A DNA stretch of 64,000 nt from an uncultured Fibrobacteraceae bacterium (GTDB lineage: Bacteria > Krumholzibacteriota > Krumholzibacteriia > LZORAL124-64-63): contig CAYTFE010000002.1 of assembly GCA_964437115.1 (NCBI GenBank), forward strand, positions 65,262-129,261, given 5' to 3'. Of this stretch, positions 4,902-62,544 are shown piece after piece; position 1 is the stretch's first letter, and each line of letters opens with the position of its first letter. Position numbers and translations under genes: made by a program. The notes beneath the pieces were generated by a model, which made no database searches, had not been told where the DNA came from, and was given only the letters and a program-made list of their open reading frames with translations.

Positions 4902-4971
4902 AGCCAGTCCACCTTTCGGAACATTTCACAGAGGTGGCGTCATCGTAAAAATGTGCCACCTGTTAATTTTT

Positions 4972-10167: not shown

Positions 10168-10307
10168 AACCAGTGTACGCCTTTCATACACCGCAAACAG
10201 CAATGGCTCCGAATGTAAGAACACACTGCTGTCACGAAAACCAACCAAGAGTTACTTGGAAGCTTCAGAAACAAGACTACTATACTTCTTCCCATGAAAT
10301 ATAGGGA

Positions 10308-10327
10308 TTGACCCGTGACAGTGTCAA
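10308..10327. promoter_or_regulatory. Perfect palindrome TTGAC-N10-GTCAA upstream of the 916 aa lipoprotein gene.
   Basis: Read directly from the sequence: ttgac ccgtgacagt gtcaa, about 140 nt upstream of the probable start codon. Confidence 0.3.
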
Positions 10328-10382
10328 CCCAGACTTTGCTTTAACTTGTTGCAAATTAAAATAATTTGTTCAAAACAGACAT

Positions 10383-10413
10383 AAAAAAAAAGGCGCCCCT
10401 AGAAAGGGGCGCC
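10383..10413 (-). terminator. Rho-independent terminator for the 10438..13416 gene.
   Basis: On the minus strand, a 9 bp perfect GC-rich stem (GGCGCCCCU/AGGGGCGCC, 4 nt loop) is followed by a run of 9 U. Confidence 0.8.
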
Positions 10414-10437
10414 ACAAAGACCTAAACGAAAAGTAAA

Positions 10438-13416
10438 TTACTTAACGAGAGCCATTTTGTTTACAGTAACATTACTGCCTGAACGTACTTCATAGAAGTA
10501 AATACCAGAAGCAACATCGCCACCAGCATTGTTAGTACCATTCCAAGTTTTTACACCTGAAGTAGTCGTAACATCTTCGTCAACGAGAGTCTTAACGAGC
10601 TCACCTTGAACGTTGTAAACCTTGATTGAAAGGTCACCCGCAACAGGGATGGTCCATTCAATTTTGGTTGATGGGTTAAATGGATTCGGGAAGTTCTTGG
10701 CTGCAAAGCTAGGACCTGGTACTACGCCAGTTGGAGTGCTTGTACCAATATGACCAAAGAATAACAGAATTTCATTTAAAGCAGCTGCACGAGCGTTTCC
10801 AGGTGCATCTGTATTATACCAGTACATGAAGTCAACTGGGAAGTAGACTACATCTGCATCAGCAAGACCAGCATAGTTATAAACACCTGCAGCATAGCTG
10901 TAAACTCCGCCGTTGCCAGAAGCATCAGCAAATTCAGCAATACGCTCACAAGTACCATTTGGCTCAACAATATCAAAGTCATTAAATACAGCACAACCGC
11001 CATATGCAACAAACTCTGTTGTCAGACCAACAGTGTTACCAGCAACAGGAAGTACCAGAGGTGCAGGTTGTCCACCAATAACTGGAAGCAAGTCACCACC
11101 CAGGTAATCAACTGATAGCCAGTTAGCAACAAATGCAACACCATTTCCACCAGAAGCCATCAAGTCCGCTGCAAGGTCATCACCAGTGAACAAGGCATTC
11201 TTGCTACCAGAATCTAACCATGTGTCAATCAAACTGATATCATCACCGGGATCGTTTGCAAAGTCACCATTACTTAAAGTAAATGATCCGAGGTTACCAG
11301 CTGTATAGACAAGAGTCTCATAACCAGCAAGTACCGCAGGAGTTGCACGTCCACCAAGACCATTACCTACACCAGAAGAAGGACCATTGGTGTAATAGTA
11401 ATCGTAGTCAACACCTTCTTGATAACCAATTCTGTTCAAAGCATATAGCCACTCATTTTCGCCACCACGGTCAGCAAAGTCATTCCATAATAGAATTTCT
11501 GGCTGATCACCAGCAACGGCAGTGTTCAGAGTAGGTAGAGCTCGAACAATATAGCTACTGTTCCACTCGAATGCTTGATAAAGAGGGTCACCTGGGAAAA
11601 TACCAAAACCATCAAGGTCAGATGGCAATGTGGAAGTTCCACCAAGGTCATCACTGGCTTCGATGTAGTAATGAATTACATCACCAGGGAAGAAGAAGTC
11701 ATCGTCATCTGGAAGATCAAAACTGTAACGATCTGGAATCAAAATACCAGTATCCAGGAAGATTGAGTCAGCTTCAACAGAGCCAACAGCTGGATACGCA
11801 GGGTTTCTGAAAGGATCGAACAGAGGATTTCTGTCCATTGAATAATTCAAAACTGGAACAGCACTAAGAACTGATCCTGTACGAACTGCAACAATATCAA
11901 AGACAATTGAGTCACCAGGAAGGTTCATCATATCTGCTTCGAGAGCAATATTTCTGGCCATATCGAATCTAACATCGTTAGCATCGAGAGCGCCAAAGTC
12001 AATGTCACCGATTGCAGGGAAGTTGTCTTGTGCAATATCAATTTCACGAGTGGAGATACCAGGACCACCAAACTCAAAAACTTTAAATGCAATATTATCA
12101 AAGTAAGGACCTGGAGTTCCATCGGTGCCTTCAAAGCCCCAGACGTAACCCAGCTCATTTGTACCAAGTGCAAGCTGAGCCATATCACGGCCAGGAAGCA
12201 TCAAGTCAGTACAGTTCTGTTGGATACGCAGGTAGTCTGGACCACCATAGTATACAAAGTTACGATCTTGCCATGCGGTCCAAGTTGTTCCACCATCATC
12301 TGATGAACGAACATGCCATACATAGAAAAGACCATTATTTAGAATCTGATGACGATATACATCGTAATCAAATTGTGCACCATCATAAGCACCTACAGGG
12401 TAGGTTAACTCTGGTGACCAGATTTCATTTAGATGATGATAGTCAGGTCCAGCACAACCACCAAGAAGGTTGACAACATAGCCACCAGGGCCATATGTGT
12501 AAGTTGAACCCAAGGTACCGCCAGTACAAGGCACTACAATACCGTCATCAATAAATGCAAACTGTGGTGATTGGTTTCCGTTACACTCGTCTAAATCACC
12601 AAGACGTGGCCATACTTTGGAAAAGTCGCCAACAGCAGGTGGAAGAACAACTGCCCAGTTACCTAGACCAGATTCAAAATCATCAAAGATTACTTGAGAG
12701 CCATTAAAGGCAATAGCAACATCATCAAGGTTTGTGTGACCAGCTGTTGGCCATAAACAGTCAACATCAGACCATGCACTATCAGATGCACCAATGAATT
12801 GAACGTGAATCTGATCAGCACCAGGACCCATATAGTTTGCAGGATCAACAGTAACGTTAATAGCAAAAGCTTCAGCAGTGCCAATACCGTTCCATTGGCC
12901 ATAAGGCATCAATCCGCCTGTTTCTTCTACAATAAAGTATGTGTAGTCATAACCAGGCTCATTGTCGTACCAGATTGTTCCAGTAACATCAAGAGTTGTT
13001 GCAACTAAAGGATCAGGAGCAGTTCCTGACCAGTCCAGAAGCTCCCAATAAGAGTTTGCGTAGCCACCGACAGGGTCGCCGACGCCACAAGAAGGAATAT
13101 TTTCATCGCCACAGTATGCAGTATTTACACCTGTGAGATACGTGCTAACATGCCAGGTAGGGACTTTTGCAGTAAGATCTACACCAATCCAACCTTCCTC
13201 ATCAGGAAGTGTACCTGAAACATCATCTTGGAATTTACCATCGTCACGGTCAGGTCCACCAATTAGATAAACGGTGTCTGCACGTGATGCATTCATTGGA
13301 GTTGCAGTAAATACCTGCTCATATCTGCTATCAGCTAGATCATAAGATCCAATAGAAGCAAATGCAGATCCGGTAAGAATAACCAAGGCCAAACTAACGA
13401 GAGTGAGTTTCCTCAT
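10438..13416 (-). CDS. Secreted 992 aa protein of unknown function with a T9SS-type C-terminal sorting domain.
   Basis: Signal peptide (MRKLTLVSLALVILTGSAFA). The C-terminus reads FPNPFNPSTKIEWTIPVAGDLSIKVYNVQGELVKTL...ASGIYFYEVRSG, matching the Por-secretion/FlgD-Ig-like CTD pattern. Confidence 0.55.
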   Translation of the reverse strand: MRKLTLVSLALVILTGSAFASIGSYDLADSRYEQVFTATPMNASRADTVYLIGGPDRDDGKFQDDVSGTLPDEEGWIGVDLTAKVPTWHVSTYLTGVNTAYCGDENIPSCGVGDPVGGYANSYWELLDWSGTAPDPLVATTLDVTGTIWYDNEPGYDYTYFIVEETGGLMPYGQWNGIGTAEAFAINVTVDPANYMGPGADQIHVQFIGASDSAWSDVDCLWPTAGHTNLDDVAIAFNGSQVIFDDFESGLGNWAVVLPPAVGDFSKVWPRLGDLDECNGNQSPQFAFIDDGIVVPCTGGTLGSTYTYGPGGYVVNLLGGCAGPDYHHLNEIWSPELTYPVGAYDGAQFDYDVYRHQILNNGLFYVWHVRSSDDGGTTWTAWQDRNFVYYGGPDYLRIQQNCTDLMLPGRDMAQLALGTNELGYVWGFEGTDGTPGPYFDNIAFKVFEFGGPGISTREIDIAQDNFPAIGDIDFGALDANDVRFDMARNIALEADMMNLPGDSIVFDIVAVRTGSVLSAVPVLNYSMDRNPLFDPFRNPAYPAVGSVEADSIFLDTGILIPDRYSFDLPDDDDFFFPGDVIHYYIEASDDLGGTSTLPSDLDGFGIFPGDPLYQAFEWNSSYIVRALPTLNTAVAGDQPEILLWNDFADRGGENEWLYALNRIGYQEGVDYDYYYTNGPSSGVGNGLGGRATPAVLAGYETLVYTAGNLGSFTLSNGDFANDPGDDISLIDTWLDSGSKNALFTGDDLAADLMASGGNGVAFVANWLSVDYLGGDLLPVIGGQPAPLVLPVAGNTVGLTTEFVAYGGCAVFNDFDIVEPNGTCERIAEFADASGNGGVYSYAAGVYNYAGLADADVVYFPVDFMYWYNTDAPGNARAAALNEILLFFGHIGTSTPTGVVPGPSFAAKNFPNPFNPSTKIEWTIPVAGDLSIKVYNVQGELVKTLVDEDVTTTSGVKTWNGTNNAGGDVASGIYFYEVRSGSNVTVNKMALVK

Positions 13417-31115: not shown

Positions 31116-31964
31116 CTATGAATAGTCCATAAGGGCAGAGACCTCTACCTGCTGGCGTATTTTTTCCAACGATTTTTCTTTGATCTGCCTGATGCGCTCA
31201 CGAGTTAAACCAAGAGTCCTGCCTATTGCTTCCAGGGTCATTGCCTCTTCATGGCCCAGCCCGTAGTACATAATTACAATACCTTTTTCACGAGGTGTCA
31301 GACAACTAAGGCTGCTTAAAATATCTTCCTTAAGAACTCTATCCATAGCACCTTGGTCTGTAGTGGCATCATTATCGTTTGTTATTGTCTCAAGTAATGG
31401 TCTCTCACTGTCCTGAGAGCCGGTATCATCCAAAGGCACCATCGCCCCGCCCAGCTTTATCGCAGTCCGGACATGATTAATATCAACTCCTGAGTGCTTG
31501 GATAGTTGTTCGGCATTTGGGGATTCGACTCCTCTGCTTTCCAGCGTATTCCTGGACCGGTTAATTTTCAGCAAAACTGCAGTTTGATTTTGTGGCAACC
31601 GAACCATCCTACCACTATCCAGTAATGCTTGTAAAATCGATTGTCTGACCCACCACACCGCATAAGAAATAAACTTGAATCCACGTTTTTCATCAAACCT
31701 TGTGGCCGCTTTTATTAGCCCCAGGTTGCCTTCATTAATTAAATCTGAAAGTGATAAGCCGTGATACATATACTTTTTAGCTACTGTAACAACAAATCTT
31801 AGATTTGACTGCACAAGCAATTCAAGGGCTTTATTGTCTCCCTCTCTAATTTTTTTAGCACAATCGGATTCTTGTTCACGTGTCAACAATGCAAACTTGT
31901 TAATCTCCCGGAAATAGATATCCAGAGATCTTTCATGTGTCTGTAGTATGTGTGTTCCACTCAT
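31116..31964 (-). CDS. rpoD: Short primary-type sigma-70 factor lacking region 1.1 (Bacteroidetes sigmaA-like).
   Basis: 282 aa. Regions 2-4 are intact (YAVWWVRQSILQALLDSGRMVRLPQNQ, a region 4 HTH). The length and LPxNQ motif match the FCB-group primary sigma. Confidence 0.6.
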   Translation of the reverse strand: MSGTHILQTHERSLDIYFREINKFALLTREQESDCAKKIREGDNKALELLVQSNLRFVVTVAKKYMYHGLSLSDLINEGNLGLIKAATRFDEKRGFKFISYAVWWVRQSILQALLDSGRMVRLPQNQTAVLLKINRSRNTLESRGVESPNAEQLSKHSGVDINHVRTAIKLGGAMVPLDDTGSQDSERPLLETITNDNDATTDQGAMDRVLKEDILSSLSCLTPREKGIVIMYYGLGHEEAMTLEAIGRTLGLTRERIRQIKEKSLEKIRQQVEVSALMDYS

Positions 31965-32134: not shown

Positions 32135-32503
32135 CTATTCGGTGTCAACAGGTTTCTCATCAACTATCTCAACAACAACTTCTTCAACTTCATCTGACTC
32201 TATTTCACTATCTGCCGCTTTTATGTCGGCAATTTCAGCTTGCTTGGATATCATTTCTATCTCAAGCTTGCGCACTTTTTCAATGAGTTCCAACAACACA
32301 GGATCTTCCAAAATGTCTGAACGATCGGACTCTATGCCATTATAGACAATATCACCTATTTCACTGAACTGGCGTTCGATATCTCTGCTAATACCAAACA
32401 TGTCATACTTACGAGCTCCAACCTTTGCAGCCACACCAGTTTTGTCTGCAGCCACTCCATACCACTCAACCAAATTGCGTTTTACTTCATCAAAAAGTGA
32501 CAT
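32135..32503 (-). CDS. Hypothetical protein with an acidic coiled-coil C-terminus.
   Basis: 122 aa ORF with good coding appearance and no recognisable domain. Confidence 0.4.
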   Translation of the reverse strand: MSLFDEVKRNLVEWYGVAADKTGVAAKVGARKYDMFGISRDIERQFSEIGDIVYNGIESDRSDILEDPVLLELIEKVRKLEIEMISKQAEIADIKAADSEIESDEVEEVVVEIVDEKPVDTE

Positions 32504-41046: not shown

Positions 41047-44000
41047 CTACCTGCGTATCAGCCCATACAATCTGATTTTTTTCAACAAATTAGGGTAACT
41101 AATACCCAAAATGCGTGATGCTTGCGACTTATTGCCACCAGTTCGCTTCAAAGCCCTGGATATTTCACGACATTCAACCTCACCCAAAGTTTCACGCAAA
41201 GGTGTAATTAAATCTCCATCAACGCTGCCTCGACCACTCTCAGCAACATTCGCAGGTAGATGTTCTTGATGAAGCGTGTCGCCAGATCTCATCAGGACCA
41301 TTGCTCTTTTGATACATTTCTCAAGCTCACGAACATTTCCTGGCCAACCGTAAGATACTAAAGCATCCATAAATGATGGCGTGTAACCAGGAACATCAAC
41401 TTGTGTTTCCCTGGCAAAACGAGTTATAAAATGATGAGCTAATAGTCTTATGTCTTTATGTCTATCACGTAAAGGTGGAATATATAGAGGGAAATCAGAA
41501 ATTCTATAGTAAAGATCTTCAAGGAAAAAAGCGCTTTCAGCTTGCTGCTTTAAGTCTCCCTTGCTTGCACAAATAATCCTGACATCGATGGTTTTTTCCT
41601 GTGTGGAACCAATTTGCCGCACTTTGTGTCCATCCAGAAATTGCAGAAGTTTGCCCTGCATCGACACTGGAAGTTTATTGATTTCATCCAGAAAAATAGT
41701 TCCACCCTCGGCTTCAGCCAAGAGACCCTTTTTGTCACCTGAGGCTCCTGTAAAACTACCCTTCAAGTGTCCAAAGAGTTCACTCTCGATCAGTGATTCC
41801 GGAATTGCTGCGCAATTTATGGACATAAACTTATTGCTACTACGATTACTTAAAGCATGAATAGCATAAGCAATAAGCCCTTTACCTGTACCTGTTTCAC
41901 CCTGAAGCAAAACAGTCAAATCACTATCTGCTACTTTTTGAGCTAATCCCAGCAACTCAAGCATTTTCTCGTCACCGGTAATAACATTTTCAAAACTGTC
42001 TATTCCAGCAACAGGCTTTGGTACAGACCCGGAATCTACACCACCATTTGTACGTTCCTGCAGGAACATGCCTAAAAAGCCCATATAGGCATAAATAAAC
42101 TCAAGTGAAGAGCTACGAAATTGGCCCTCTCCAGCATCTGTTTGTTTCATAGCAAGAAACAACAGCCCCTTGAAATTATCACGAGAAGAAACTGGTATAA
42201 ATGTGCAACTTGAAAAACTAGCCATCATATCTTTAACTGGTGTTCCTGAAAAATCGTGACTACTGACTGAAGAAAGTAGCAACGAAGAATTGCTGTCAAA
42301 ATCACAGCTTTCTTTGTACCAGGACGACAGCTCAGAAGCCTGATTACCAGGCAATCCTTCACTGGCAGCAGTTTTTAAAAGTGTACCTTTGGCATCGGGT
42401 ATATCAATTGCGATAAATCCCACACTTGCCCCACTACGTTCAATACAAGCATTTAGTACCGATGTTAAATTACCGGCCACTGCTCCATCACCCTTGAACA
42501 TTGCAGTAATATTGTCGCCCAACAGGCCAAAAGATTCTCCCGGCTTCATTGAGGATGACATCATCCTGCTCTCGATTCGTCCACGCAAATCTGCAATCGA
42601 CAAAGTTGAAGCATTCTCACCCGTAGCAGTTATTATTCTCTCTAGTTCCGCTACTGCCAACAGTGCCTCATCATATTCCTCAAGCTTGAGCTGGATTTCT
42701 GCCATGTCATGCTGCAACTCAATGAATAACTTCTCATCATGTGAAGTATCATAGTCGTCTATCAGCTTTACTAAATGGCGACGCATCAGTTTCAGCAGTT
42801 CCAGATCGGCGTTGTTGATCCTATGTCGAATAAATGCATTAAGGGATCGACACGCCTCAATAGGCAAATTCTGATCAATAAATATTTCAATTGAAGCAAT
42901 AAAACCTTCGTCGGCACCTTCTAAATTTCCAATGGCTTTATTAGCAATACCTAAAGATCTGTTACAAAAACCAAGTTCATAAACTTCACCACAAGAACTA
43001 CAAACTGCCATTGCTGCATTTGCTGCCTCGATAGCTCTGTCCCAATCTTTAGCAAATATATGAGCATCAGCACACCTGCGGAGTAACTCACCCTCAAGAT
43101 CAGTCACTGTTCCAACAGACTGCGCCCTATCAAGTCCAAGACCAAAACTGTAAAGAGCGGCATCTACTTCACCACGAGCTAGTAAAATATCTCCCAGATA
43201 TTCATCGGCAATTGTTGTTTCACGCCTGAAACCAGCTTGTTCTGAAAGTAATTTTCCCTCCATTACTAATTCTTCAGCTCTCAGCAGATGGCCTTCCTGT
43301 AATTCGAGATACCCAAGAGCTAGACAATTTTTTGCCTGGCGAGAAGCGTCACCAAGACTTTTGGCCAATCTCAAGCTATTCCCAAGACTTAATCTTGCTT
43401 CCGAAAAGCTGCCTACTTTTCTTTGAATTATTCCCATATTTAACTGGAATCTTGAAAGCAGATGAGCAGCGCCATGGTGCTCGGCAGTTGCAATAGCTTG
43501 TTTCTGAAGTTGAACCGCTTTCTCCCAATTACAAGCATTCTTTTGTATCAGAGCGATATTGTTCTGTGAGATCGCTATACCAATTTCATCTCCAACCCTA
43601 CGGAAGGTAGATGCAGCATCGTAATAAAACTCTTCAGCTTTAGCCAACCTACCAAGCCTGTGGTGGCAAACACCCATTGTCATCTGTAAATTAGCAACAT
43701 CCACATGGTTATCTGACACAGCCAAAATTGCAAATGCATGCTTGGAGATTTTTAAAGCATCAACATAATTGCCAAGCTGTATAAATAGAGAAGCTCTTCT
43801 GCCAAGAAGTAACGCATGTTCCTGCTCTGACAGAGCCTCTCCACTATCAGACAGGAGCTGAAAAGCTTGCTCAATAAGTGATGTTGCCAGTGTTAAATCC
43901 CCAATTCGCAGGGTTGAATCTATGGCTTTACAAAATACTGATAAACTAAGAGAGGGTTGAAGGTTCTCACAATAGTTGGAGTCAAGGAGTTTTGAATAGT

Positions 44001-44157
44001 ATTCCAATGCTGAGGTGTAAGCAGAGGCCTCAAAGTGCAGGTCGCCAACATCAATCAACCTTATAGCGTCATCCGCATGAGCCTTGTGAGGTTCTGAGTT
44101 GCTATTCTTTCCGTACCTACTAACCATAACAATTGTCCCCTGGCGACTGGGTGGCAA
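41047..44157 (-). CDS. Large sigma-54-dependent transcriptional activator (bEBP): N-terminal TPR array, GAF-like domain, AAA+ sigma-54 interaction domain and Fis-type HTH.
   Basis: 1036 aa. [15 protein letters not shown]alker A and [15 protein letters not shown] (a GAFTGA-loop variant) are present. The C-terminal HTH is ...[19 protein letters not shown]. The first 450 residues are repetitive TPR-like. The annotated start is TTG. Confidence 0.8.
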
Positions 44158-44190
44158 TTAAAAAGTGAATACTACACTACTGGCATACCG

Positions 44191-44496
44191 TCAAAAAAAC
44201 AGTGCAACCGTTCTCGCTGTTCCTACCAGTATATCAACAACAGTATCAATACCTGTTAGATCACCGATAAGTTCATCTTCTTCACCGGGACCTGGATCAG
44301 GCATAAATTTATCCCCGGTAATTGCGTCATCAGGATCTCCTGTTGAAATAAATTCGCCAGATCCATTTATGCCAGAAGGAGAAGAAGACTCTCCCTCTTG
44401 ATACAATGGATCATCAGCAATTGCAGGAGAAATCAACGAAGTGGACAGCGCTGCACAAGCCAGTAGCAGAATAAGAATGTAATGATTTTTTTTCAT
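44191..44496 (-). CDS. Small secreted acidic Pro/Gly/Asp-rich protein (101 aa) of unknown function.
   Basis: Signal peptide MKKNHYILILLLACAALSTSLISPAIA, then a low-complexity acidic region ending in a hydrophobic ...TARTVALFF. Sits between the two bEBP genes. Confidence 0.45.
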   Translation of the reverse strand: MKKNHYILILLLACAALSTSLISPAIADDPLYQEGESSSPSGINGSGEFISTGDPDDAITGDKFMPDPGPGEEDELIGDLTGIDTVVDILVGTARTVALFF

Positions 44497-44612
44497 CTGT
44501 TTTACTTCCAGTTCAGCATATAATCAAAAAACGCATCTGCCTAAATAGCAGGCGGCTAGTCAATTATGTTGTATATATCTTACGTTTTATCTTTAGATGT
44601 GTCAAATGAGTA

Positions 44613-45974
44613 CTAAGTAGATGGCTCGGTATCTAATGCATATTTGTTAATTTTCTTATACAAATTACTTCTCTGCATTCCAAGTTTTCCTGCTGTTTTA
44701 CTGATATTATAGCGATTCTCTTTCAGTTTATGTTGCAAAAACAACGCTTCAGACTGTTCCTTGAACTCTAAGAACTCTTCACAATCCATAATTTCAGGAA
44801 ATACTGATGCATCCCTGTCTGAAGTACTTGTCAACAATGGAATATCCTTCAAGCCTATCGTTTCTCCTGGTGTAAGTATCAGTAACCTTTCTACAAGATT
44901 GCGAAGTTCTCTCACATTCCCGGGCCAGTCGTGTAATTCAAGAAACTGATATGCCTCCACAGTAAATTCTTTAGCGTCGACTTTCATATTCTGAGAAATC
45001 AACTTCATGAAGTAATCCAGGAGCAACCTGACATCACCATCTCTGTCACGCAGAGGAGGCAAATGAACTGCCAGGACATTCAGCCTGAAAAACAAATCTT
45101 GCCGAAAACCCGTCTCAGGATCTGATAAGTCTCTATTAGTTGCAGCAATAATCCTGACATCTACTTGTCTCACTTCATTACTACCAACACGTTCAAATTT
45201 GCTCTCTTCAACAGCCTTCAAAACCTTGGCCTGTGCTTCAGGACTCATATCCCCAATTTCATCCAGGAAAAGAGTTCCTCCGTCAGCCTGTTCGAATTTA
45301 CCAACTCGCATCTTTTCAGCGCCCGTAAAACTCCCCTTTTCGTGACCAAACAATTCGCTCTCAACCAACTCTGATGGAATAGCAGCGCAGTTTACCTCGA
45401 CAAGTGGGTTTGAATGACGATTGCTACCGGCGTGAATAGCCTTTACAACAAGCTCCTTGCCTGTTCCATTTTCACCAGTAATAAGAACTGTTGCATCTGT
45501 AGGTGCTACTTGATCAATAAATTTATGTACTTCTTGCATCAAAGAACATTGACCAATCAGAGGAGTATTATAACCGGTTCCATCTCGTAATCTATTTCTG
45601 TCTTCTTGAATTTGTGTGAACTCAATTCCATTTTTCAGCGTCAATAGCAACCGGGATCGATCCAACGGTTTTTCCAGAAAATCGTACGCTCCCATCTTCA
45701 CAGCTTCGACAGCTGTATCAATGTCGCCATGACCTGAAATCACAATTACCGGCATTCCATACCCGAGTTCATTAAACTTGGCAAGGACTTCAAAACCATC
45801 CATGCCAGGCATCTTGATATCTAGAAATACAGCATCGACCTGATTTTCTGCCATAACAGACAAAGCCGATGGTCCATCACCAGCGGTTAAAACATTATAT
45901 TTTTCATAAGTTAGTATCTGCTCAAAAGTTGAACGGATAGCAGCCTCGTCATCTATTATTAAAACTGTTTTCAC
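44613..45974 (-). CDS. NtrC-family response regulator (REC, sigma-54 AAA+ domain and Fis HTH).
   Basis: 453 aa. REC domain (MKTVLIIDDE...D...K), GENGTGKELVVKAIH, ESELFGHEKGSFTGA and a C-terminal HTH are all present. No histidine-kinase gene lies adjacent. Confidence 0.85.
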   Translation of the reverse strand: MKTVLIIDDEAAIRSTFEQILTYEKYNVLTAGDGPSALSVMAENQVDAVFLDIKMPGMDGFEVLAKFNELGYGMPVIVISGHGDIDTAVEAVKMGAYDFLEKPLDRSRLLLTLKNGIEFTQIQEDRNRLRDGTGYNTPLIGQCSLMQEVHKFIDQVAPTDATVLITGENGTGKELVVKAIHAGSNRHSNPLVEVNCAAIPSELVESELFGHEKGSFTGAEKMRVGKFEQADGGTLFLDEIGDMSPEAQAKVLKAVEESKFERVGSNEVRQVDVRIIAATNRDLSDPETGFRQDLFFRLNVLAVHLPPLRDRDGDVRLLLDYFMKLISQNMKVDAKEFTVEAYQFLELHDWPGNVRELRNLVERLLILTPGETIGLKDIPLLTSTSDRDASVFPEIMDCEEFLEFKEQSEALFLQHKLKENRYNISKTAGKLGMQRSNLYKKINKYALDTEPST

Positions 45975-46076: not shown

Positions 46077-47108
46077 TTGATGAAACAACTAATCAGAGAT
46101 ATACCAATAAAGTCCATTCCTGAGCTTGTTGCATCGATGAACCAACCAGAATTCAGAAGCAAACAGCTTCAACAATGGTTATGTGAAAAAGGTGCCATTG
46201 AATGGGATCATATGTCTAATATACCAACATTTCTGCGTAATCAACTTGCTGATAAATTTGCACTTTCCGGACTAAGCATTGCTGAACAACAAGTGTCGTC
46301 CGATGGAACTAAAAAATTCCTGTTTGTGCTTAGAGATGAGCAAACTATTGAGAGTGTAATTATTCCCATGGACAAACATTACACTTTTTGTGTTTCTTCA
46401 CAGGTCGGGTGCGCAATGGGTTGCTCTTTTTGTGCGACTTCCCGTGGCGGGCTTGTACGAAATTTAACCAGCGCTGAAATTGTTGAACAAGTCATTCATT
46501 TGCAAAAATATATTTCAGACAATAAACCTAAAAGCTGGAACATTGTCTTTATGGGTATGGGCGAGCCGCTGGATAATTGGGATAATGTAGCTGCTGCTAT
46601 AAATACACTTGTCGATGTGCAAGGGTTTGATATATCACCCCGCCGGATCACAATTTCAACTTCGGGCCACATTGCAGGCCTTAAAAAAATGTTGCGTAGT
46701 GAATATGGTGTCGGACTCACTGTCTCAGTTAACAGCTGTGATGATGTCGTGCGAAAGAAGCTGATGCCTATCCCAGGCCGGACCCCCTTGCCAGAAATTC
46801 TTGATGCTGCTGAAGAATATTCCAAACGGCTTTTTGGCGGAATAACAATTGCTTATGTGTTGCTTGCGGGAATTAACGACAGCAAATCAGATGCTAAAGT
46901 GCTTGCTAGTCTCGTCAGAGACAGACCTTTTAAGGTCAACCTGATTCCACTTAATGCAATCAATGATAAACAAAAAAAACCACAGGACGATGAAATCCTG
47001 CAGTTTCAAAAAGCGTTAGCTTCACATGGTGTCAGATCATTCGTCCGATCCAGCAGTGGTGAAGACATAGATGCGGCTTGTGGACAGTTGCGAAACAAGC
47101 ACAAATAG
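46077..47108 (+). CDS. rlmN: 23S rRNA m2A2503 / tRNA methyltransferase RlmN (radical SAM).
   Basis: 343 aa with the CAMGCSFCAT radical-SAM cysteine motif. Confidence 0.85.
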   Translation: MMKQLIRDIPIKSIPELVASMNQPEFRSKQLQQWLCEKGAIEWDHMSNIPTFLRNQLADKFALSGLSIAEQQVSSDGTKKFLFVLRDEQTIESVIIPMDKHYTFCVSSQVGCAMGCSFCATSRGGLVRNLTSAEIVEQVIHLQKYISDNKPKSWNIVFMGMGEPLDNWDNVAAAINTLVDVQGFDISPRRITISTSGHIAGLKKMLRSEYGVGLTVSVNSCDDVVRKKLMPIPGRTPLPEILDAAEEYSKRLFGGITIAYVLLAGINDSKSDAKVLASLVRDRPFKVNLIPLNAINDKQKKPQDDEILQFQKALASHGVRSFVRSSSGEDIDAACGQLRNKHK

Positions 47109-47111
47109 GAA

Positions 47112-47531
47112 CTATACTAAATCGGATAGTGTAGTTTCACTCAATGCTTTTTCCAGAGCATTTTGTGCTTTCTGCCAAACTCTGCTCATAGCACAATCTC
47201 CTGACCTATTGCAAGGATCAACTTTCCGCATGCAATGGTTCAGAGCAATCCCGCCCTCGCAAATATCTACAATCTCAAAAAGTGTTATTTTAGAAGGATC
47301 TTTTCCAAGAGAAAATCCACCTTTAACCCCACGATGTGATTTAATGATATTTTTCTGTGTGAGTGATTGGAATATCTTGGCCAAAAATGCCTCTGATACC
47401 AGGCATGCATCAGCTAGTTCTTTAAGTCTGACAGGAGAATCTTCATCCCGCCCGACCAGCTCCATCAATCCCCTGATAGCGTATTCTGTCTGTCTAGTTA
47501 TCTGCAACATTAGCTTACTTCCATTTCCCAA
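47112..47531 (-). CDS. Rrf2-family transcriptional regulator (IscR/NsrR-like, three conserved Cys).
   Basis: 139 aa with an N-terminal wHTH (MLQITRQTEYAIRGLMEL) and a C-x5-C...C cluster. Confidence 0.75.
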   Translation of the reverse strand: MGNGSKLMLQITRQTEYAIRGLMELVGRDEDSPVRLKELADACLVSEAFLAKIFQSLTQKNIIKSHRGVKGGFSLGKDPSKITLFEIVDICEGGIALNHCMRKVDPCNRSGDCAMSRVWQKAQNALEKALSETTLSDLV

Positions 47532-47591: not shown

Positions 47592-50500
47592 TCACATTGA
47601 TCGCCTATATTGACCACCGACCTCATAAAGAGCGTTAGTTATTTCACCCATAGAGCAATGCTTTACAGTATTCATCAACTCAACAAATACGTTCTCCCCC
47701 CCCAGAACTGCCTTGCGGAGTGCTTCCAAAGATTGGGATGATTTGTCGCTATTTTCAGATTTAAACTCTGCCAAATCTATTAAACGTTGATTCTTTTCCT
47801 GGCTGCCACATCGAGCCAGATGAAGCTCGTTACTGTCTGCTTGAGCTACATTGGTGCTGAGGTATGTGTTCACCCCTATAATTGGCAATTCACCAGAATG
47901 CTTTTTGTGTTCATATAAAAGGCTCTCTTCCTGAATCTTTCCGCGTTGGTACTGAGTTTCCATTGCACCAGGAACACCTCCACGTCGGGAGATATTTTCA
48001 AACTCAACAAGTACTGCCTCTTCCACAAGCTCTGTCATCTCATCAATAAATGCTGAACCTTGCAGCGGGTTTTGGTTTTTGGCCCAACCGAGTTCGCGAT
48101 TGATAATCATTTGGATTGCCATTGCACGTCGGACCGACTCTTCACTTGGCGTGGTAATCGCTTCATCGTAAGAATTGGTATGTAACGAGTTGCAGTTATC
48201 ATATATTGCCATCAACGCCTGTAAGGTTGTGCGAATATCATTGAAATCAATTTCTTGTGCATGCAAAGATCGGCCCGATGTCTGAATATGATATTTAAGC
48301 TTTTGTGAACGCTGGTTTGCACCATATTTATCACGCATTGCTACAGACCATATTCGACGCGCAACTCTGCCTATTACAGTGTATTCCGGGTCAAGTCCAT
48401 TGCTGAAAAAGAATGACAGGTTTGGGGCAAAGTCATTTATATCCATACCTCTACTGAGGTAATATTCCACGTAAGTAAAACCGTTGGCCAAAGTAAATGC
48501 CAACTGGCTAATTGGGTTGGCTCCAGCTTCTGCAATGTGGTAACCACTGATTGATACCGAATAATAATTACGTACTTCGCAGTCTATAAAATATTGCTGC
48601 ACATCGCCCATAAGTTTCATAGCAAATTCAGTAGAAAATATGCAAGTGTTTTGAGCTTGATCTTCCTTTAAAATATCTGCCTGTACTGTACCTCGGATAT
48701 TGGAAAGCGTGTGTTTCCTAACTTCAGCGATTTCATCTTTGTTCAACTCCCGACCAAGCTCATCCTGTTTTTTCTGAAGTTGCTGATCGATTGCAACGTT
48801 GAAATACATCGCCAGCATAATTGGAGCAGGGCCATTTATGGTCATTGAAACACTGGTGTTTGGATGGCACAAATCAAAGCCGTCATAGAGAGTTCTTACA
48901 TCATCAATGGTACATATTGAAACCCCACCCTCACCAATCTTACCAAAAATATCTGGGCGCTCTTCCGGATCTTCACCATAAAGAGTCAGACTGTCGTAGG
49001 CTGTGGAGAGCCTTTTCGCATCATCATCTTTGCTGAGATAATGGAATCGCCGGTTTGTTCTTTCTGGAGATCCTTCGCCAGCAAACTGGCGCTTTGGTTC
49101 TTCATCTGCCCTCTTGAAAGGGAACACTCCAGCAGTAAAAGGAAAATGCCCGGGAGCACCTTCCAGCCTTGAGTAGATCAAACGATCGCCGGGATCAGTA
49201 AAAACAGGGAAAGCAACCCGAGGAATGCGCGTTCCTGAAAGAGAACTTGTTGCAGTTTCAAATGTCAGTTCCCTGGCTCTCACTTTAACATGAACTTCAT
49301 CTTCTGAGTAACTGCCCATCAAGTCATCCCACTGTTGCAACTCCATTAGCAGGCCGTCTACATTGGAGTCAGCTAACTGTTGTGAAATTTCCTTGTTTTC
49401 AGGAATTTGCTTTTGAACAGTTTGTAAAGCTGCATGCTTACGAAGTAATTCTGCATCAATATGAACTTGTTGTTTATATGTTCTGACCAGATCGGCTATA
49501 TCACCAAGGTAATTTATTTTTCCAGTAGGAATTATCGCTGCCTGGCCCGATGTAGTTTTGGACATCTCAATTTGTCCTGTATTAAATAAAGCATTATTCA
49601 ACCAGCTGAAAAGAGCGTTAACACCATCATCGTTGAATCGACTGGCAATTGTACCAAATATCGGCAAATCCTGATCTTCAATTTCAAAACCGTTTCTGCT
49701 GCGACGCCATTGTTTCTTCACATCGCGTAAGGCATCTTCACTACCAGTACGATCAAACTTGTTCACAGCAACTGCACTCGCATAATCGATCATGTCGATT
49801 TTTTCAAGTTGAGTAGCAGCCCCAAATTCACTGGTCATAACATATACTGAGAGATCACTGATATCAGCTACGGCAGAGTCTCCCTGACCGATTCCACTTG
49901 TTTCAATAATTACCAAATCAAAGCCGGCAGACCTAACAAGAGGCAGGCAATCTGAAAGTGCCTTACTCAGCTCACCTCGTGCGCCACGCGTGCCAAAACT
50001 ACGCATAAAACATCTGTCACCATAAACTGCGTTCATCCTGATTCGGTCGCCAAGCAAGGCTCCGCCGGTTTGTCTTTTACTGGGATCAACTGCAAGTAAA
50101 GCAATTTTTAAATCTGGGGAGCTTGAAATAAATCTTCTGATTAATTCATCAGTTAATGAGCTTTTACCGGCTCCGCCTGTGCCAGTAATGCCAAGCACTG
50201 GAGGTAAATTGTTGGAATCTGAATCAGATATTTCACTAGTTCCATTTTCAACATTTGAAAGTTCCACAGCAAGATTGAAGTTCTCGGCAACACAAGTTGG
50301 TTTTTGTCCATTAACCTTATTTCTCTGCCCCCGGCGAACATGTACCCTCTTATTCATATCATCAATTATGCCCTGCAAGCCTAATTCACGGCCATCATCA
50401 GGAGAATATATTTTGTCGATTCCATCATCTTCAAGAGCTTTGATTTCATCTGGGATAATGACTCCCCCACCACCACCAAAGATTGCTATGTGTTGCAAGC

Positions 50501-50804
50501 CTCTTTCATCCAATTCCGATCTGAGAAATCGGAAAAACTCATTATGTCCACCCTGGTAACTACTGATTGCAATTGCATCAGCATCTTCTTGCAATGCTGC
50601 ACGAACAATGTCGGGTACTGATCTATTATGCCCCAGATGAATAACTTCGTTTCCAGATTTCTGAAGAAGCCTGCGAATGATATTTATCGATGCATCGTGA
50701 CCATCGAATAAAGAAGCAGCTGTTACAAATCTTAGCGGTATTGTTTGAGCGGTGGACATGCAGCCTCCAGAGTGCTGTCTAAAGTTTCTATCTTCATTAA
50801 CCAC
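47592..50804 (-). CDS. icmF: Fused isobutyryl-CoA mutase IcmF (B12-binding domain, MeaB-like GTPase and mutase substrate domain).
   Basis: 1070 aa. B12 DxHxxG (DGHDASINII), a P-loop GITGTGGAGKSS and the C-terminal methylmalonyl-CoA-mutase-like barrel. Confidence 0.8.
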   Translation of the reverse strand: MVNEDRNFRQHSGGCMSTAQTIPLRFVTAASLFDGHDASINIIRRLLQKSGNEVIHLGHNRSVPDIVRAALQEDADAIAISSYQGGHNEFFRFLRSELDERGLQHIAIFGGGGGVIIPDEIKALEDDGIDKIYSPDDGRELGLQGIIDDMNKRVHVRRGQRNKVNGQKPTCVAENFNLAVELSNVENGTSEISDSDSNNLPPVLGITGTGGAGKSSLTDELIRRFISSSPDLKIALLAVDPSKRQTGGALLGDRIRMNAVYGDRCFMRSFGTRGARGELSKALSDCLPLVRSAGFDLVIIETSGIGQGDSAVADISDLSVYVMTSEFGAATQLEKIDMIDYASAVAVNKFDRTGSEDALRDVKKQWRRSRNGFEIEDQDLPIFGTIASRFNDDGVNALFSWLNNALFNTGQIEMSKTTSGQAAIIPTGKINYLGDIADLVRTYKQQVHIDAELLRKHAALQTVQKQIPENKEISQQLADSNVDGLLMELQQWDDLMGSYSEDEVHVKVRARELTFETATSSLSGTRIPRVAFPVFTDPGDRLIYSRLEGAPGHFPFTAGVFPFKRADEEPKRQFAGEGSPERTNRRFHYLSKDDDAKRLSTAYDSLTLYGEDPEERPDIFGKIGEGGVSICTIDDVRTLYDGFDLCHPNTSVSMTINGPAPIMLAMYFNVAIDQQLQKKQDELGRELNKDEIAEVRKHTLSNIRGTVQADILKEDQAQNTCIFSTEFAMKLMGDVQQYFIDCEVRNYYSVSISGYHIAEAGANPISQLAFTLANGFTYVEYYLSRGMDINDFAPNLSFFFSNGLDPEYTVIGRVARRIWSVAMRDKYGANQRSQKLKYHIQTSGRSLHAQEIDFNDIRTTLQALMAIYDNCNSLHTNSYDEAITTPSEESVRRAMAIQMIINRELGWAKNQNPLQGSAFIDEMTELVEEAVLVEFENISRRGGVPGAMETQYQRGKIQEESLLYEHKKHSGELPIIGVNTYLSTNVAQADSNELHLARCGSQEKNQRLIDLAEFKSENSDKSSQSLEALRKAVLGGENVFVELMNTVKHCSMGEITNALYEVGGQYRRSM

Positions 50805-60511: not shown

Positions 60512-61087
60512 ATGCAGATTATCCAGAATAAAGCTGGCTGGATCGAAGTTATTTGCGGCTCAATGTTCAGTGGCAAAAGCGAAGAGTTAATTAAAAGAGT
60601 TCGTCGTGCAGAAATTGCCCGGCAGCGTATACAACTGTTTAAACCTAAATTAGATGATCGATATGATGATAAAGACATTGTTTCACATAACCAGCAACGC
60701 CTTTCCAGTACTCCAGTTGAATCCAGCGAAGAAATCATGAAGCTGGTGGATGATAAAGTTCAAGTTGTCGGGATTGATGAAGCACAATTTTTTGATGGCG
60801 GTATTGTAGAAGTTTGCAACAAGTTGGCTAATCGTGGCAAAAGAGTAATTGTGGCTGGTCTCGACCAGGATTATAGAGGCGAACCGTTTGGTCCAATGCC
60901 TGTTCTTATGGCAATTGCCGAATATGTCACAAAACAGCTGGCAATCTGCATGAGGTGCGGCAATCCTGCCAACCATACTCAAAGGCTAACAGATTGTACT
61001 GATAAAATTGTTGTGGGAGCACAAGGAACATACGAAGCAAGGTGCCGCCTTTGCTATGAGATACCACTTGAAAAAGAAAAAGATTAG
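60512..61087 (+). CDS. tdk: Thymidine kinase.
   Basis: 191 aa with the P-loop [12 protein letters not shown] and a C-terminal zinc ribbon CxxC...CxxC. Confidence 0.85.
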
Positions 61088-62544
61088 CACTCTACATCAA
61101 TTATAGAGAGCTCTTCCCACATTTTAGTCCATGTATCTACATCTATGTTCAATATTTTAGCATTCTTACTAATCGCGTGTTTCACTTCAACAACTTCTAA
61201 TGTGTTCTCTCTGACTTCTGCCAATTCCTCACCCAGCGCGATTAATCTGGCAAGCTCAGGCACTTCTTCCTCATATCCCGCATGGTGCAATTTTACCGCA
61301 CCAGCTAATTCAGGATTCAGATGCCACCTGTCTATCAGACAACCGCCAAGATCACCATGATCAAACCCAAACGTTGCTTTTTCTATTGCATGAACTGGCT
61401 CACCCTGTTTGTTTGCCGATTCAAATATTTTTTTATACTGATCCGGCAGAGCTCTTGCCAACACAAGCTGACCAAGGTTCTGCATGAGCCCACCTGTAAA
61501 AGCTACTTCTCTATTGCAAAGTCCTGAAGTATCAGCGGCAACTTGGCAAGCAATTGCGGTCGATACTGATTTTTCCCAAATTGAGTTCAACACTTCGCTT
61601 TTACGACCACCCAAAATTACTGCCCGTGAAGCTGCAACCAAAGTCCAGCTTCTGATTGTTCTGAAACCTAATCTCACTATCGCATCGCGAACCGTCTTGA
61701 TTTCTGAATTACCCATAAAGTATGATGAATTTGCTACACCCAGTATTCGCGCAGTCATTACCTGATCCAGACTAATCTCCCGCTCCAGATCTGCTGCAGT
61801 TGCATCATCTTTTGAAAGCAATGAAAGAACTCTTGATGCAACCTGCGGTAATACTGAGAGCTCACCAACCATGTTGACTACTTTTTCAGGAGTAAGCGTT
61901 GAAAGCTCTATATTTGACAAATCCGTTCTATGAGCTTTTTCAGCTGCCATAATTGCTGAAATTTTACTGCCTGAGGTTATGATTTCAGCTTCAATGCAAT
62001 GCAACTTCGTTAAGGCACTGTTTGCTAACAGTGGCAATAGGCTGGCAACTTTGCAGTCTACATCCCAATCAAAGTAGATGCTTGTATTCCATCTTCCCCG
62101 AGATGGCAATGGCAGAATAAATGATTGCTGGTTCCCGATATCTGCTATCTTCATAAACTCACCTGACACTATTTTTGATGTCAAGTTACCTACATAAACT
62201 GATTTCTCTTCACTGGTTAAGCTAAATATATCTTCTTCGATCAACGAAATTAATTCTGGATTATATCCATTTGTTGTCATTTCTGCTGGGATATCGATGC
62301 CAACTGCCAACAAAACTCGTAAACCGCTGCTCCACTTTCTCATTAGAAGCATCCTGTAGCCTGTATCACAAGCCAACTCATGGAAAATAGAGGTTACATC
62401 GGCAACAGACATACACCTATTGAGCTGCCTAGCAGCCCGTAAAATCGGTTTTAAATTCAATTCTGGAGTTCTAACTGCTTCTGCATTTTTAACATCAATG
62501 TTAAGTTCATCGGAAGTCATAACGCCATCACATGATACTTTCAT
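61084..62544 (-). CDS. HDOD-domain signalling protein with an uncharacterised N-terminal domain.
   Basis: 486 aa. The C-terminal half has the HDOD pattern (...[10 protein letters not shown]...). Confidence 0.6.

Follow-up and report, generated by a model that had tools for sequence, protein, structure and literature searches.

Background

In Enterobacteriaceae, the glmY-qseE-qseG-qseF locus (qseE and qseF are also named glrK and glrR) combines a sigma-54 response regulator (RR) and an exported accessory protein with an adjacent small RNA (sRNA) gene (PMC6075780, PMC8745638). A locus of comparable composition is described here from a 64,000-nucleotide (nt) stretch of contig CAYTFE010000002.1 (positions 65,262 to 129,261), which was analysed as a whole and is referred to as the window. 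It holds a three-gene regulatory cassette, followed directly by two sigma-54 promoters, P1 and P2. The cassette encodes an NtrC-type RR that is itself a bacterial enhancer-binding protein (RR-bEBP), a small acidic protein of 101 amino acids (aa) with a signal peptide, and a second, one-component bEBP with TPR, GAF, AAA+ and helix-turn-helix (HTH) domains (TPR-GAF bEBP). P1 precedes a conserved structured RNA, and P2 an operon of envelope proteins.

The cassette resembles the enterobacterial locus in its NtrC-type RR and small exported accessory protein, in a sigma-54 sRNA with upstream activating sites, and in its envelope output (PMC6075780, PMC3045617, PMC8745638). It differs in having no histidine kinase in the locus and a soluble TPR-GAF bEBP in the kinase's place; its small protein has no relation to QseG and is not clearly a lipoprotein, and its RNA is unrelated to GlmY, longer, and located downstream rather than upstream of the regulator genes. 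In the LuxO-Qrr system of Vibrio, an NtrC-type RR bEBP likewise activates a neighbouring sRNA gene. The cassette RR scores 353 bits on the LuxO model, which is under the cutoff of 800, and hence is not a LuxO; LuxO structures are among the matches to the AAA+ fold modelled for the TPR-GAF bEBP. Qrr sRNAs are about 100 nt long, whereas the cassette RNA has about 290 nt and is highly structured, and we know of no link between the cassette and Hfq or quorum sensing. A non-coding RNA target has also been assigned to a bEBP of D. vulgaris, DVU2359 (PMC4641369). QseE/G/F-GlmY and LuxO-Qrr are the closest functional parallels of the cassette, which is a member of neither.

Further comparisons concern single parts. 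The GAF one-component bEBPs NorR, NifA and FhlA also carry a GAF domain just N-terminal to the AAA+ domain, where it probably represses until a signal arrives (NorR mechanism, PMC2941729). The cassette bEBP differs in the TPR solenoid of about 500 residues in front of its GAF domain, and it does not reach the equivalog cutoffs of these proteins, its matches being confined to the AAA+/HTH part. Tandem bEBP genes upstream of a sigma-54 target are found in HrpR/HrpS and other paired bEBPs; the cassette bEBPs, however, are not twin paralogues; either one has a sensor and an HTH of its own, and two distinct enhancer motifs exist. The RRNPP receptors of Firmicutes (Rap, NprR, PlcR and PrgX) are cytoplasmic TPR regulators encoded beside a small open reading frame (ORF) with a secretion signal. 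After a literature search, we know of no characterised case of a TPR-GAF sensor module on a bEBP.

Results and discussion

A conserved cassette before two sigma-54 promoters

All three cassette genes lie on the minus strand, in the order RR-bEBP, small protein, TPR-GAF bEBP (Table 1). A first-pass annotation, made from the letters of the window, had read them as a co-directional regulatory unit upstream of two sigma-54 promoters, and this arrangement was kept in every related locus that could be examined. In total, 58 related loci were gathered by exact look-ups, genome scans and metagenome scans. The RR gene was present in 39/39 related metagenomic loci, the small ORF stood immediately upstream of the TPR-GAF gene in 54 of the 55 loci with enough upstream DNA, and the series P1-RNA-P2 followed 3' of the TPR-GAF gene in all of the 36 loci that have 1 kb or more of downstream sequence.

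With the first 708 residues of the large activator as query, about 90 clusters of full-length orthologues (1010–1068 aa) were found, 36–47% identical in the TPR-GAF sensor region; a few of them carry the label Candidatus Krumholzibacteriia. A scan of the genome collection with a single protein found two close relatives only; the wider family came from the metagenome scan. Proteins identical to those of the window lie on metagenomic contigs of up to 461 kb from marine oxygen-minimum-zone samples. Relatives are labelled Krumholzibacteria or Gemmatimonadales, and markers of type IX secretion encoded in the window, a Por_Secre_tail protein and one of the PorV family, suggest the Fibrobacteres-Chlorobi-Bacteroidetes (FCB) group.

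We read the cassette as one half, the regulatory one, of a sigma-54 module that an uncultured lineage has conserved, with its two activators acting on P1 and P2 just downstream, and give this reading a probability of about 0.7. There is good support for its core, that the genes form a regulatory unit serving the adjacent sigma-54 promoters. Side by side, an RR and a cytoplasmic one-component TPR-GAF protein would act on the two promoters; P1 would make the structured regulatory RNA of about 290 nt, and P2 the envelope operon for a lipoprotein, a DUF4384/CxxCH protein, an M6-like protein and a porin of the PorV/PorQ family. What gives the locus its value is the invariant cassette and its context: four fixed parts (RR activator, exported protein of about 100 aa, TPR-GAF activator and sigma-54 structured RNA) stay together throughout a deep uncultured lineage and precede an operon that has a link to type IX secretion.

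The term operon, used in the first-pass annotation for the three genes, may need to allow for an internal promoter. The gap between the RR gene and the small ORF contains a sigma-70-like candidate that matches the consensus at 10 of 12 positions, and a TTGACA-N17-TAnnnT element was found in this gap in 11 of 42 distinct loci, the window and distant ones included. A conserved terminator in the same gap was considered and rejected, as terminator-like hairpins occur in 3/42 loci only; because they are so rare, co-transcription of the RR gene and the small ORF is possible. Autoregulation was also rejected: a sigma-54 site lies upstream of the RR gene in 2/28 loci, with no conserved site or positioned dyad.

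Beside the cassette, an RlmN-like radical-SAM gene (plus strand, divergent from the RR gene) and a gene for an Rrf2-family regulator (47112..47531, minus strand), together spanning window positions 46077–47531, keep their place in distant genomes.

The response regulator

The receiver of the RR-bEBP has its phospho-acceptor at Asp52 (FLD52IKMP) and the DD pair at residues 8–9, and a receiver domain with a phospho-acceptor Asp places the protein in the NtrC family. The Asp-site pattern was found in 109 of 120 clusters of RR orthologues, among which the HTH (LGMQRSNLYKKI) is conserved as well. No NCBIfam equivalog cutoff was reached, either for NtrC (417 bits, cutoff 558.6), NtrX (401.6, cutoff 600), PrsR (PEP-CTERM; 383, cutoff 502.6), LuxO (353, cutoff 800) or GlrR (324, cutoff 763). 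Since the NtrX cutoff is not reached, the JGI label "NtrX" on orthologues is an automatic name only.

The RR had been called an orphan. Pfam detected no histidine kinase domain in the scanned ORFs of at least 100 aa of the window, that is, within 18–44 kb around the RR gene, nor in the 10-kb flanks of distant syntenic loci. The description is therefore accurate for this neighbourhood, but it is commonplace, as unlinked kinases are common, and it carries little weight for the significance of the locus. The partner kinase is expected to be encoded elsewhere, and phosphorylation of Asp52 by such an unlinked kinase would switch the RR-bEBP on.

The TPR-GAF activator

The ORF of the large activator does extend over 1036 codons to a TTG at 44157, as first noted, but this probably over-extends the gene by ten codons. 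The ATG at 44127 has the better ribosome-binding context and is used by gene callers and by all orthologues, and the likely product has 1026 aa.

The domain architecture was assessed with an AlphaFold2 model built on 50 orthologues (pLDDT, the model's confidence score, 84.2) together with profile searches. The first-pass annotation had proposed that a receiver is replaced by about 450 residues of TPR repeats plus a GAF-like domain; the architecture agrees, but the helical repeat is longer, at about 500 residues. Tandem helical repeats and a match to a TPR profile (Table 1) both identify the solenoid as a TPR array, and the sensor-region profile matches TPR structures of the kinesin-light-chain and LGN/Pins type in the PDB, with E values from 4.5e-10 to 1e-6. 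TPRs of the kinesin-light-chain/LGN type bind extended peptides in their groove. A disordered linker in the model joins the solenoid to the alpha/beta domain behind it. GAF_2 matches orthologues at the homologous residues 565–696 (29.3 bits against a cutoff of 28.6 in orthologue P0008, more weakly in others), and the window protein itself has no Pfam GAF match; its GAF assignment, which uses homology transfer and the model, appears to be right. The protein has no membrane segment, and the top PDB matches of its model in Foldseek (ZraR, FlrC, NtrC1 and LuxO) are all AAA+, with target-normalised TM scores of up to 0.95 (0.81–0.95 for ZraR, FlrC and NtrC1). The solenoid as a protein- or peptide-binding scaffold and the GAF domain as a small-ligand pocket would presumably keep the AAA+ ring inactive for as long as no signal is received.

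Several cysteines of the solenoid are conserved: C199 is invariant, and C154 (MGVCH) and C376/C379 (CxxC, in VCxSCGE) are kept in at least 90% of the sequences. This hints at possible metal or redox sensing.

The AAA+ cores and the GSFTGA loop

Both activators carry a Sigma54_activat AAA+ domain (Table 1), and both sets of ATPase motifs are intact, with Walker A and B readable as GENGTGKE and GETGTGKG, and FLDEI. Both also read ESELFGH.KGSFTGA, as the first-pass annotation had pointed out in contrast to the canonical GAFTGA. The motif is present in both, but is not noteworthy. GSFTGA is found naturally in FleR of P. aeruginosa (PMC10696123), occurs in DVU2394 and DVU3220 of D. vulgaris, where the variant was classed as retaining activity (PMC4641369), and is listed among the tolerated variants in enhancer-binding proteins of Clostridiales (PMC6615313). 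A survey of the lineage showed that GSFTGA and GAFTGA interchange in both orthologue families, with counts of 67 and 21 in the TPR-GAF bEBP family and 81 and 39 in the RR family. The loop was consequently rejected as a distinctive trait, being a known functional variant that swaps with GAFTGA among orthologues. The choice between the two reads as a neutral lineage polymorphism and not as a feature of the system, and in both activators the loop is predicted to be functional for sigma-54 contact. Like the orphan status of the RR, it adds little to the interest of the locus.

Promoters and enhancer-like dyads

The strict pattern TGGCACN6TGCW occurs twice in the window, against 0.40 matches expected, and both matches lie directly downstream of the TPR-GAF gene. 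In the 36 loci with enough downstream DNA, a GG[CT]A..N..TGC element is always present about 200–300 nt past the bEBP stop codon, and a second sigma-54 element follows it after 490–815 nt in all 36.

Enhancer-like dyads were analysed in 28 non-redundant loci, using hand-built degenerate regular expressions and shuffled sequence as background. Motif A (GTCC-N6-9-GGAC) was found upstream of P2 in 25/28 loci (shuffled mean 9.3, maximum 16), mostly at about -180 to -210, and is essentially absent upstream of P1 (3/28, with 4.5 expected). Motif B (AACnnnTTG-N5-11-CAAnnnGTT) precedes P1 in 26/28 loci (shuffled mean 11.1, maximum 18), at positions near -50 from the GG and about -150 to -175. It was also seen, more weakly, upstream of P2 (15/28; shuffled mean 6.2, maximum 12), at -63 to -127. 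Each of the two activators accordingly has nearby sigma-54 promoters with upstream dyads, to which binding and activation are predicted.

The two types of dyad probably reflect two activators with distinct DNA specificity, each with a site of its own. Motif B (P1 and, more weakly, P2) and motif A (P2 only) would each serve one activator, and P2 may integrate the inputs of both. The locus would in this way offer a defined system of two promoters and two enhancers for dissecting signal integration by two different bEBPs.

An unlikely alternative is that the two activators share one mixed AAA+ ring, so that both signals are needed at both promoters. HrpR/HrpS and FleQ/FleT co-assemble in this manner, and HrpR and HrpS are close paralogues without sensor domains. 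The cassette genes are adjacent and always co-inherited, and their products have the same loop variant and similar AAA+ cores, which would suit such a hetero-oligomer. Unlike HrpR/HrpS, however, the two proteins have unrelated sensors and different HTH sequences; P1 and P2 differ in the dyad motifs that precede them; and the RR orthologues are far more conserved (62–68% identity) than the TPR-GAF sensor region (36–47%). Interaction between paired bEBPs does have a documented precedent in RedR1/RedR2 (PMC10084136).

A structured RNA downstream of P1

In 36/36 loci, P1 is followed by a fixed series of elements, (A/G)GGGA about 45 nt on, GTGGGGT at about +170 and GGCGAG at about +300. The stretch from P1 to the terminator is far better conserved than its surroundings and shows single-base insertions and deletions (indels) in close relatives. 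A small ORF inside the P1 transcript was rejected, as there is no conserved ORF, some orthologues lack any of at least 11 aa, and the indels are not multiples of three.

The alignment of 29 distinct versions of the RNA (435 columns) gave an RNAalifold consensus of 39 base pairs, of which 32 have compensatory changes. In the consensus fold 90.3% of the cells were paired, compared with 37–53% when the partners were slid by 1–3 columns, and 0/500 shuffles reached the observed values on any of five measures. A long-range helix is formed by UCGGGAGA and UCUCCCGA in most members. Few parts are as well conserved as the terminator helix and U-run (helix 6, 95.7% paired), and the window RNA folds at -92.5 kcal/mol (z -4.54). 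Rfam returned nothing at gathering thresholds in the window, and the versions from the window and from loci L033 and L015 gave only sub-threshold matches at chance level at E <= 5. Complements of the invariant loops (CCCCACC and TCTCGCC), looked for as candidate targets of the RNA, occur in the window at chance-level counts.

The P1 transcript is put forward as a new, previously undescribed candidate for a sigma-54-dependent regulatory RNA, with good covariation support as an RNA family; trans action and leader action are both possible. For the latter, the transcript would be a structured leader or riboswitch-like attenuator with conditional read-through into the envelope operon, P2 being a second, independent promoter. 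RNA and operon share a strand, with the RNA immediately before the operon. In its size and structure the RNA is like many cis-regulators, and its terminator sits within a conserved three-way junction that could be remodelled. We nevertheless consider a leader role improbable. An enhancer dyad and a full sigma-54 promoter stand between terminator and operon in all loci, the terminator helix and U-run are strongly conserved, the consensus fold contains no anti-terminator pairing, and there is no Rfam riboswitch match.

The loop of the 5' hairpin reads (U)UACAGGGAU in many members and UGUAGGGAA in the window, and resembles the CsrA-binding consensus RUACARGGAUGU. As there are only one or two such sites per RNA, it is not a sponge of the CsrB type.

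The small exported protein

The translation agrees with the first description of the middle gene as an acidic, Gly/Pro-rich signal-peptide protein of 101 aa. It starts MKKNHYILILLLACAALSTSLISPAIA|DD, the bar marking the predicted cleavage site, and ends VALFF; the mature part of 74 residues has 17 D/E, only 2 K/R, and 17 G/P. No match was found in Pfam or NCBIfam. A word-indexed search returned 4 clusters, all close relatives, and a profile search of 1.84 billion representatives returned 2 clusters. Distant members are recognisable only by position and motif, and the size of the family is therefore not measurable by sequence.

Conservation of this ORF, on which its standing as a functional gene depended, was nonetheless evident from its presence in all but one of the 55 loci. 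The counterpart ORFs, of about 100–115 aa, share one plan: an MK(R/K) start, a hydrophobic signal sequence up to an AxA-like site, a variable acidic/Gly-rich stretch, an invariant GDP, further acidic residues and a hydrophobic or amphipathic end of 13–16 residues. Across 36 aligned sequences, M1, G53, D54 and P55 are invariant, and the core motif comes in two flavours, GDPDDAITGNR and GDPGDAGDGYG. The cassette yields with it a new small-protein family, defined by position and the invariant GDP motif.

A secreted signal, a co-factor and an anti-activator had been offered as possible roles. With its positive N-terminus and signal sequence, the protein is predicted to carry its acidic domain outside the cytoplasm, which makes an anti-activator or a ligand of the TPR domain doubtful. 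Because the bEBP is cytoplasmic, direct binding to its TPR domain would need processing and re-import, and without these steps is unlikely. By analogy with QseG, which serves QseE/QseF, the protein is most likely an extracytoplasmic accessory or feedback component of a signalling or envelope system.

It is improbable that the small protein is a pro-peptide, exported, processed and re-imported, of which a fragment binds the TPR groove of the bEBP in an RRNPP-like cell-cell circuit with sigma-54 output. In favour of such a circuit, a signal-peptide ORF adjoins the gene of a cytoplasmic TPR regulator in 54/55 loci, the TPR region is of the peptide-binding kinesin-light-chain/LGN type, and the small protein combines a strongly conserved core motif with a hydrophobic peptide at its C-terminus. 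The cassette differs from RRNPP systems in its output through an AAA+ sigma-54 activator, in phylum and envelope type, and in its longer pro-protein, about 100 aa being more than known RRNPP pro-peptides have. Re-import would have to cross two membranes in this Gram-negative lineage, neither a linked peptidase nor an Opp transporter was seen in Pfam scans of the window, and an invariant core motif speaks against specificity of the pherotype kind. In its full form, in which the TPR-GAF activator serves inside the cell as receptor of a peptide cleaved from the neighbouring protein and an RRNPP-style circuit outside Firmicutes is wired through sigma-54 to an sRNA and a type-IX-secretion surface operon, the idea is a long shot. 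If true, it would be a functional parallel to LuxO-Qrr made from entirely different parts, in a Gram-negative uncultured lineage.

Weight of the regulatory reading

Four points count against the reading of the cassette as the control unit of P1 and P2. The whole neighbourhood, with genes for an rlmN-like protein, an Rrf2 regulator, an acyl-CoA ligase and an M28 peptidase, is syntenic across related genomes, so that conserved adjacency alone overstates functional coupling and is partly background. The enhancer motifs are degenerate regular expressions with a non-trivial background, and motif B before P2 is weak (15/28 against 6.2). The sequence does not tell which activator binds motif A and which motif B. 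Finally, the QseG-like role of the small protein is an analogy only, with no linked kinase and no sequence similarity to QseG.

That the genes are mere neighbours of the promoters and control targets elsewhere in the genome, for which the likewise syntenic housekeeping genes and the partly background gene order could be cited, is the least probable explanation, as bEBPs typically act on nearby enhancers and P1 and P2 are the only strict sigma-54 promoters in 64 kb, at a fixed distance from the bEBP stop codon in divergent genomes and with dyads between.

The P2 operon

The operon behind P2 has the same genes in the same order in five independent distant loci. Its last protein passes the PorV/PorQ-family cutoff (Table 1), and the PorV and PorQ equivalogs themselves were not reached. 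The 1081-aa protein is homologous to the NCBIfam family "T9SS-dependent M6-like inactivated metalloprotease", M6 being the immune-inhibitor-A-like family, and its end (...GLYVCRVIASSGDDIKVLVKSVAVAR) has the appearance of a sorting domain for type IX secretion, which Pfam does not call. This inactive M6-like protein is probably a cargo of type IX secretion. Sigma-54 is generally tied to the cell exterior (PMC3162934), and the locus extends this theme to lineages with type IX secretion.

The DUF4384 protein has an invariant HPRYLCxQCHD, that is, a CxxCH as in c-type haem attachment, together with a further invariant Cys, a Tyr/Trp-rich block and a very long basic tail rich in Ser, Lys and Arg. 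Following the operon, beyond a metallophosphoesterase gene on the opposite strand, are genes for an RpoS/RpoD-like sigma-70-family factor of 282 aa (31116–31964, minus strand) and a 122-aa protein with no assigned function (32135–32503, minus strand); this order recurs in distant loci.

Table 1. Positions of the cassette, promoter, RNA and operon features in the window (first letter of the window = 1)
Feature	Position	Strand	Description and basis
NtrC-type response-regulator bEBP, 453 aa	44613..45974	-	Pfam REC 111 bits (PF00072), Sigma54_activat 224.8 bits (PF00158), AAA_lid_14, HTH_8
GSFTGA L1-loop motif of RR-bEBP, residues 214-219	45318..45335	-	
Sigma-70-like promoter candidate, TTGACA-17-TAAGAT	44577..44605	-	gap between RR gene and small ORF; 10/12 consensus match; putative function
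Small exported acidic protein, 101 aa	44191..44496	-	translation; predicted signal peptide 1-27 (AIA|DD), acidic Gly/Pro-rich middle, hydrophobic/amphipathic C-terminus; VVDILVGTARTVALFF
GDPDDAITG core motif of small protein, residues 53-61	44314..44340	-	GDP invariant in family
TPR-GAF-AAA+-HTH one-component bEBP, 1026 aa	41047..44127	-	ATG 44127; ORF extends to TTG 44157 (1036 codons)
TPR-like alpha-solenoid, residues 18-525	42553..44076	-	26 helices in pairs, uninterrupted (model); TPR_12 73.3 bits, cutoff 30.1; TPR_MalT also matches
GAF-like alpha/beta domain, residues 549-694	42046..42483	-	beta-sheet and helices in model; GAF_2 matches in orthologues
AAA+ sigma-54 activator domain, residues 716-965	41233..41982	-	Sigma54_activat 208.2 bits; AAA_lid_14
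GSFTGA in TPR-GAF bEBP	41743..41760	-	
Fis-type HTH, residues 977-1020	41068..41199	-	HTH_8 42 bits; three helices in model
Distal enhancer-like dyad, motif B type, CGTAACTGTATTTGTTAC	40978..40995	-	GTAAC-N7-GTTAC by eye in alignment of close relatives; window site missed by motif B regular expression
Proximal enhancer-like dyad, motif B, GGTTAACTTGTTGCTATCAAGGACGTTAAG	40863..40892	-	upstream of P1
Sigma-54 promoter P1, TGGCACATTACCTGCA	40824..40839	-	strict pattern match; in 660-nt gap
Conserved structured non-coding RNA, ~280-290 nt, P1-driven	40535..40815	-	presumed 5' end; hairpin and U-run terminator
RNA 5' hairpin with AGGGA loop	40803..40789	-	
RNA apical hairpin, invariant loop GGUGGGG	40688..40674	-	
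RNA three-way-junction terminator, inner loop GGCGAG	40605..40535	-	
Enhancer-like dyad, motif A, GTCCAATCAAGAGGAC	40510..40525	-	directly after RNA terminator, upstream of P2
Motif-B-like element, GTGTAACTTTAATAAAGCCAAGTAGATAGC	40396..40425	-	between motif A and P2, by eye; regular-expression match in window was another site at -116; weaker than other sites
Sigma-54 promoter P2, TGGCACAATAGATGCA	40334..40349	-	~30 nt upstream of operon ATG at 40304; conserved in 36/36 loci
P2 operon, four genes	33332..40304	-	translations, Pfam, NCBIfam
Lipoprotein, 299 aa, lipobox ISGC	40304..39405	-	
DUF4384 protein, invariant CxQCH	39380..37719	-	
FG-GAP/M6-like protein, 1081 aa, without HExxH, CTD-like (C-terminal domain) end	37518..34273	-	NCBIfam NF052323 E 1.3e-59, below its cutoff
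PorV/PorQ-family outer-membrane protein	34276..33332	-	NF033709 157.4 bits, cutoff 90

Other genes of the window

Further genes, all on the minus strand, lie outside the module. At 61084–62544, a protein of 486 aa matches HDOD only, at residues 230–422, and Pfam finds nothing in the 230 residues N-terminal to it. A run of very large proteins of the secreted type (780, 841, 916 and 992 aa) occupies positions 2559–13416; two of them have no Pfam match, and the one of 992 aa has a type IX sorting tail. The gene at 47592–50804 encodes a 1070-aa fusion of a B12-binding domain, a MeaB-like GTPase and a methylmalonyl-CoA-mutase domain, which we take to be an IcmF-type fused acyl-CoA mutase.

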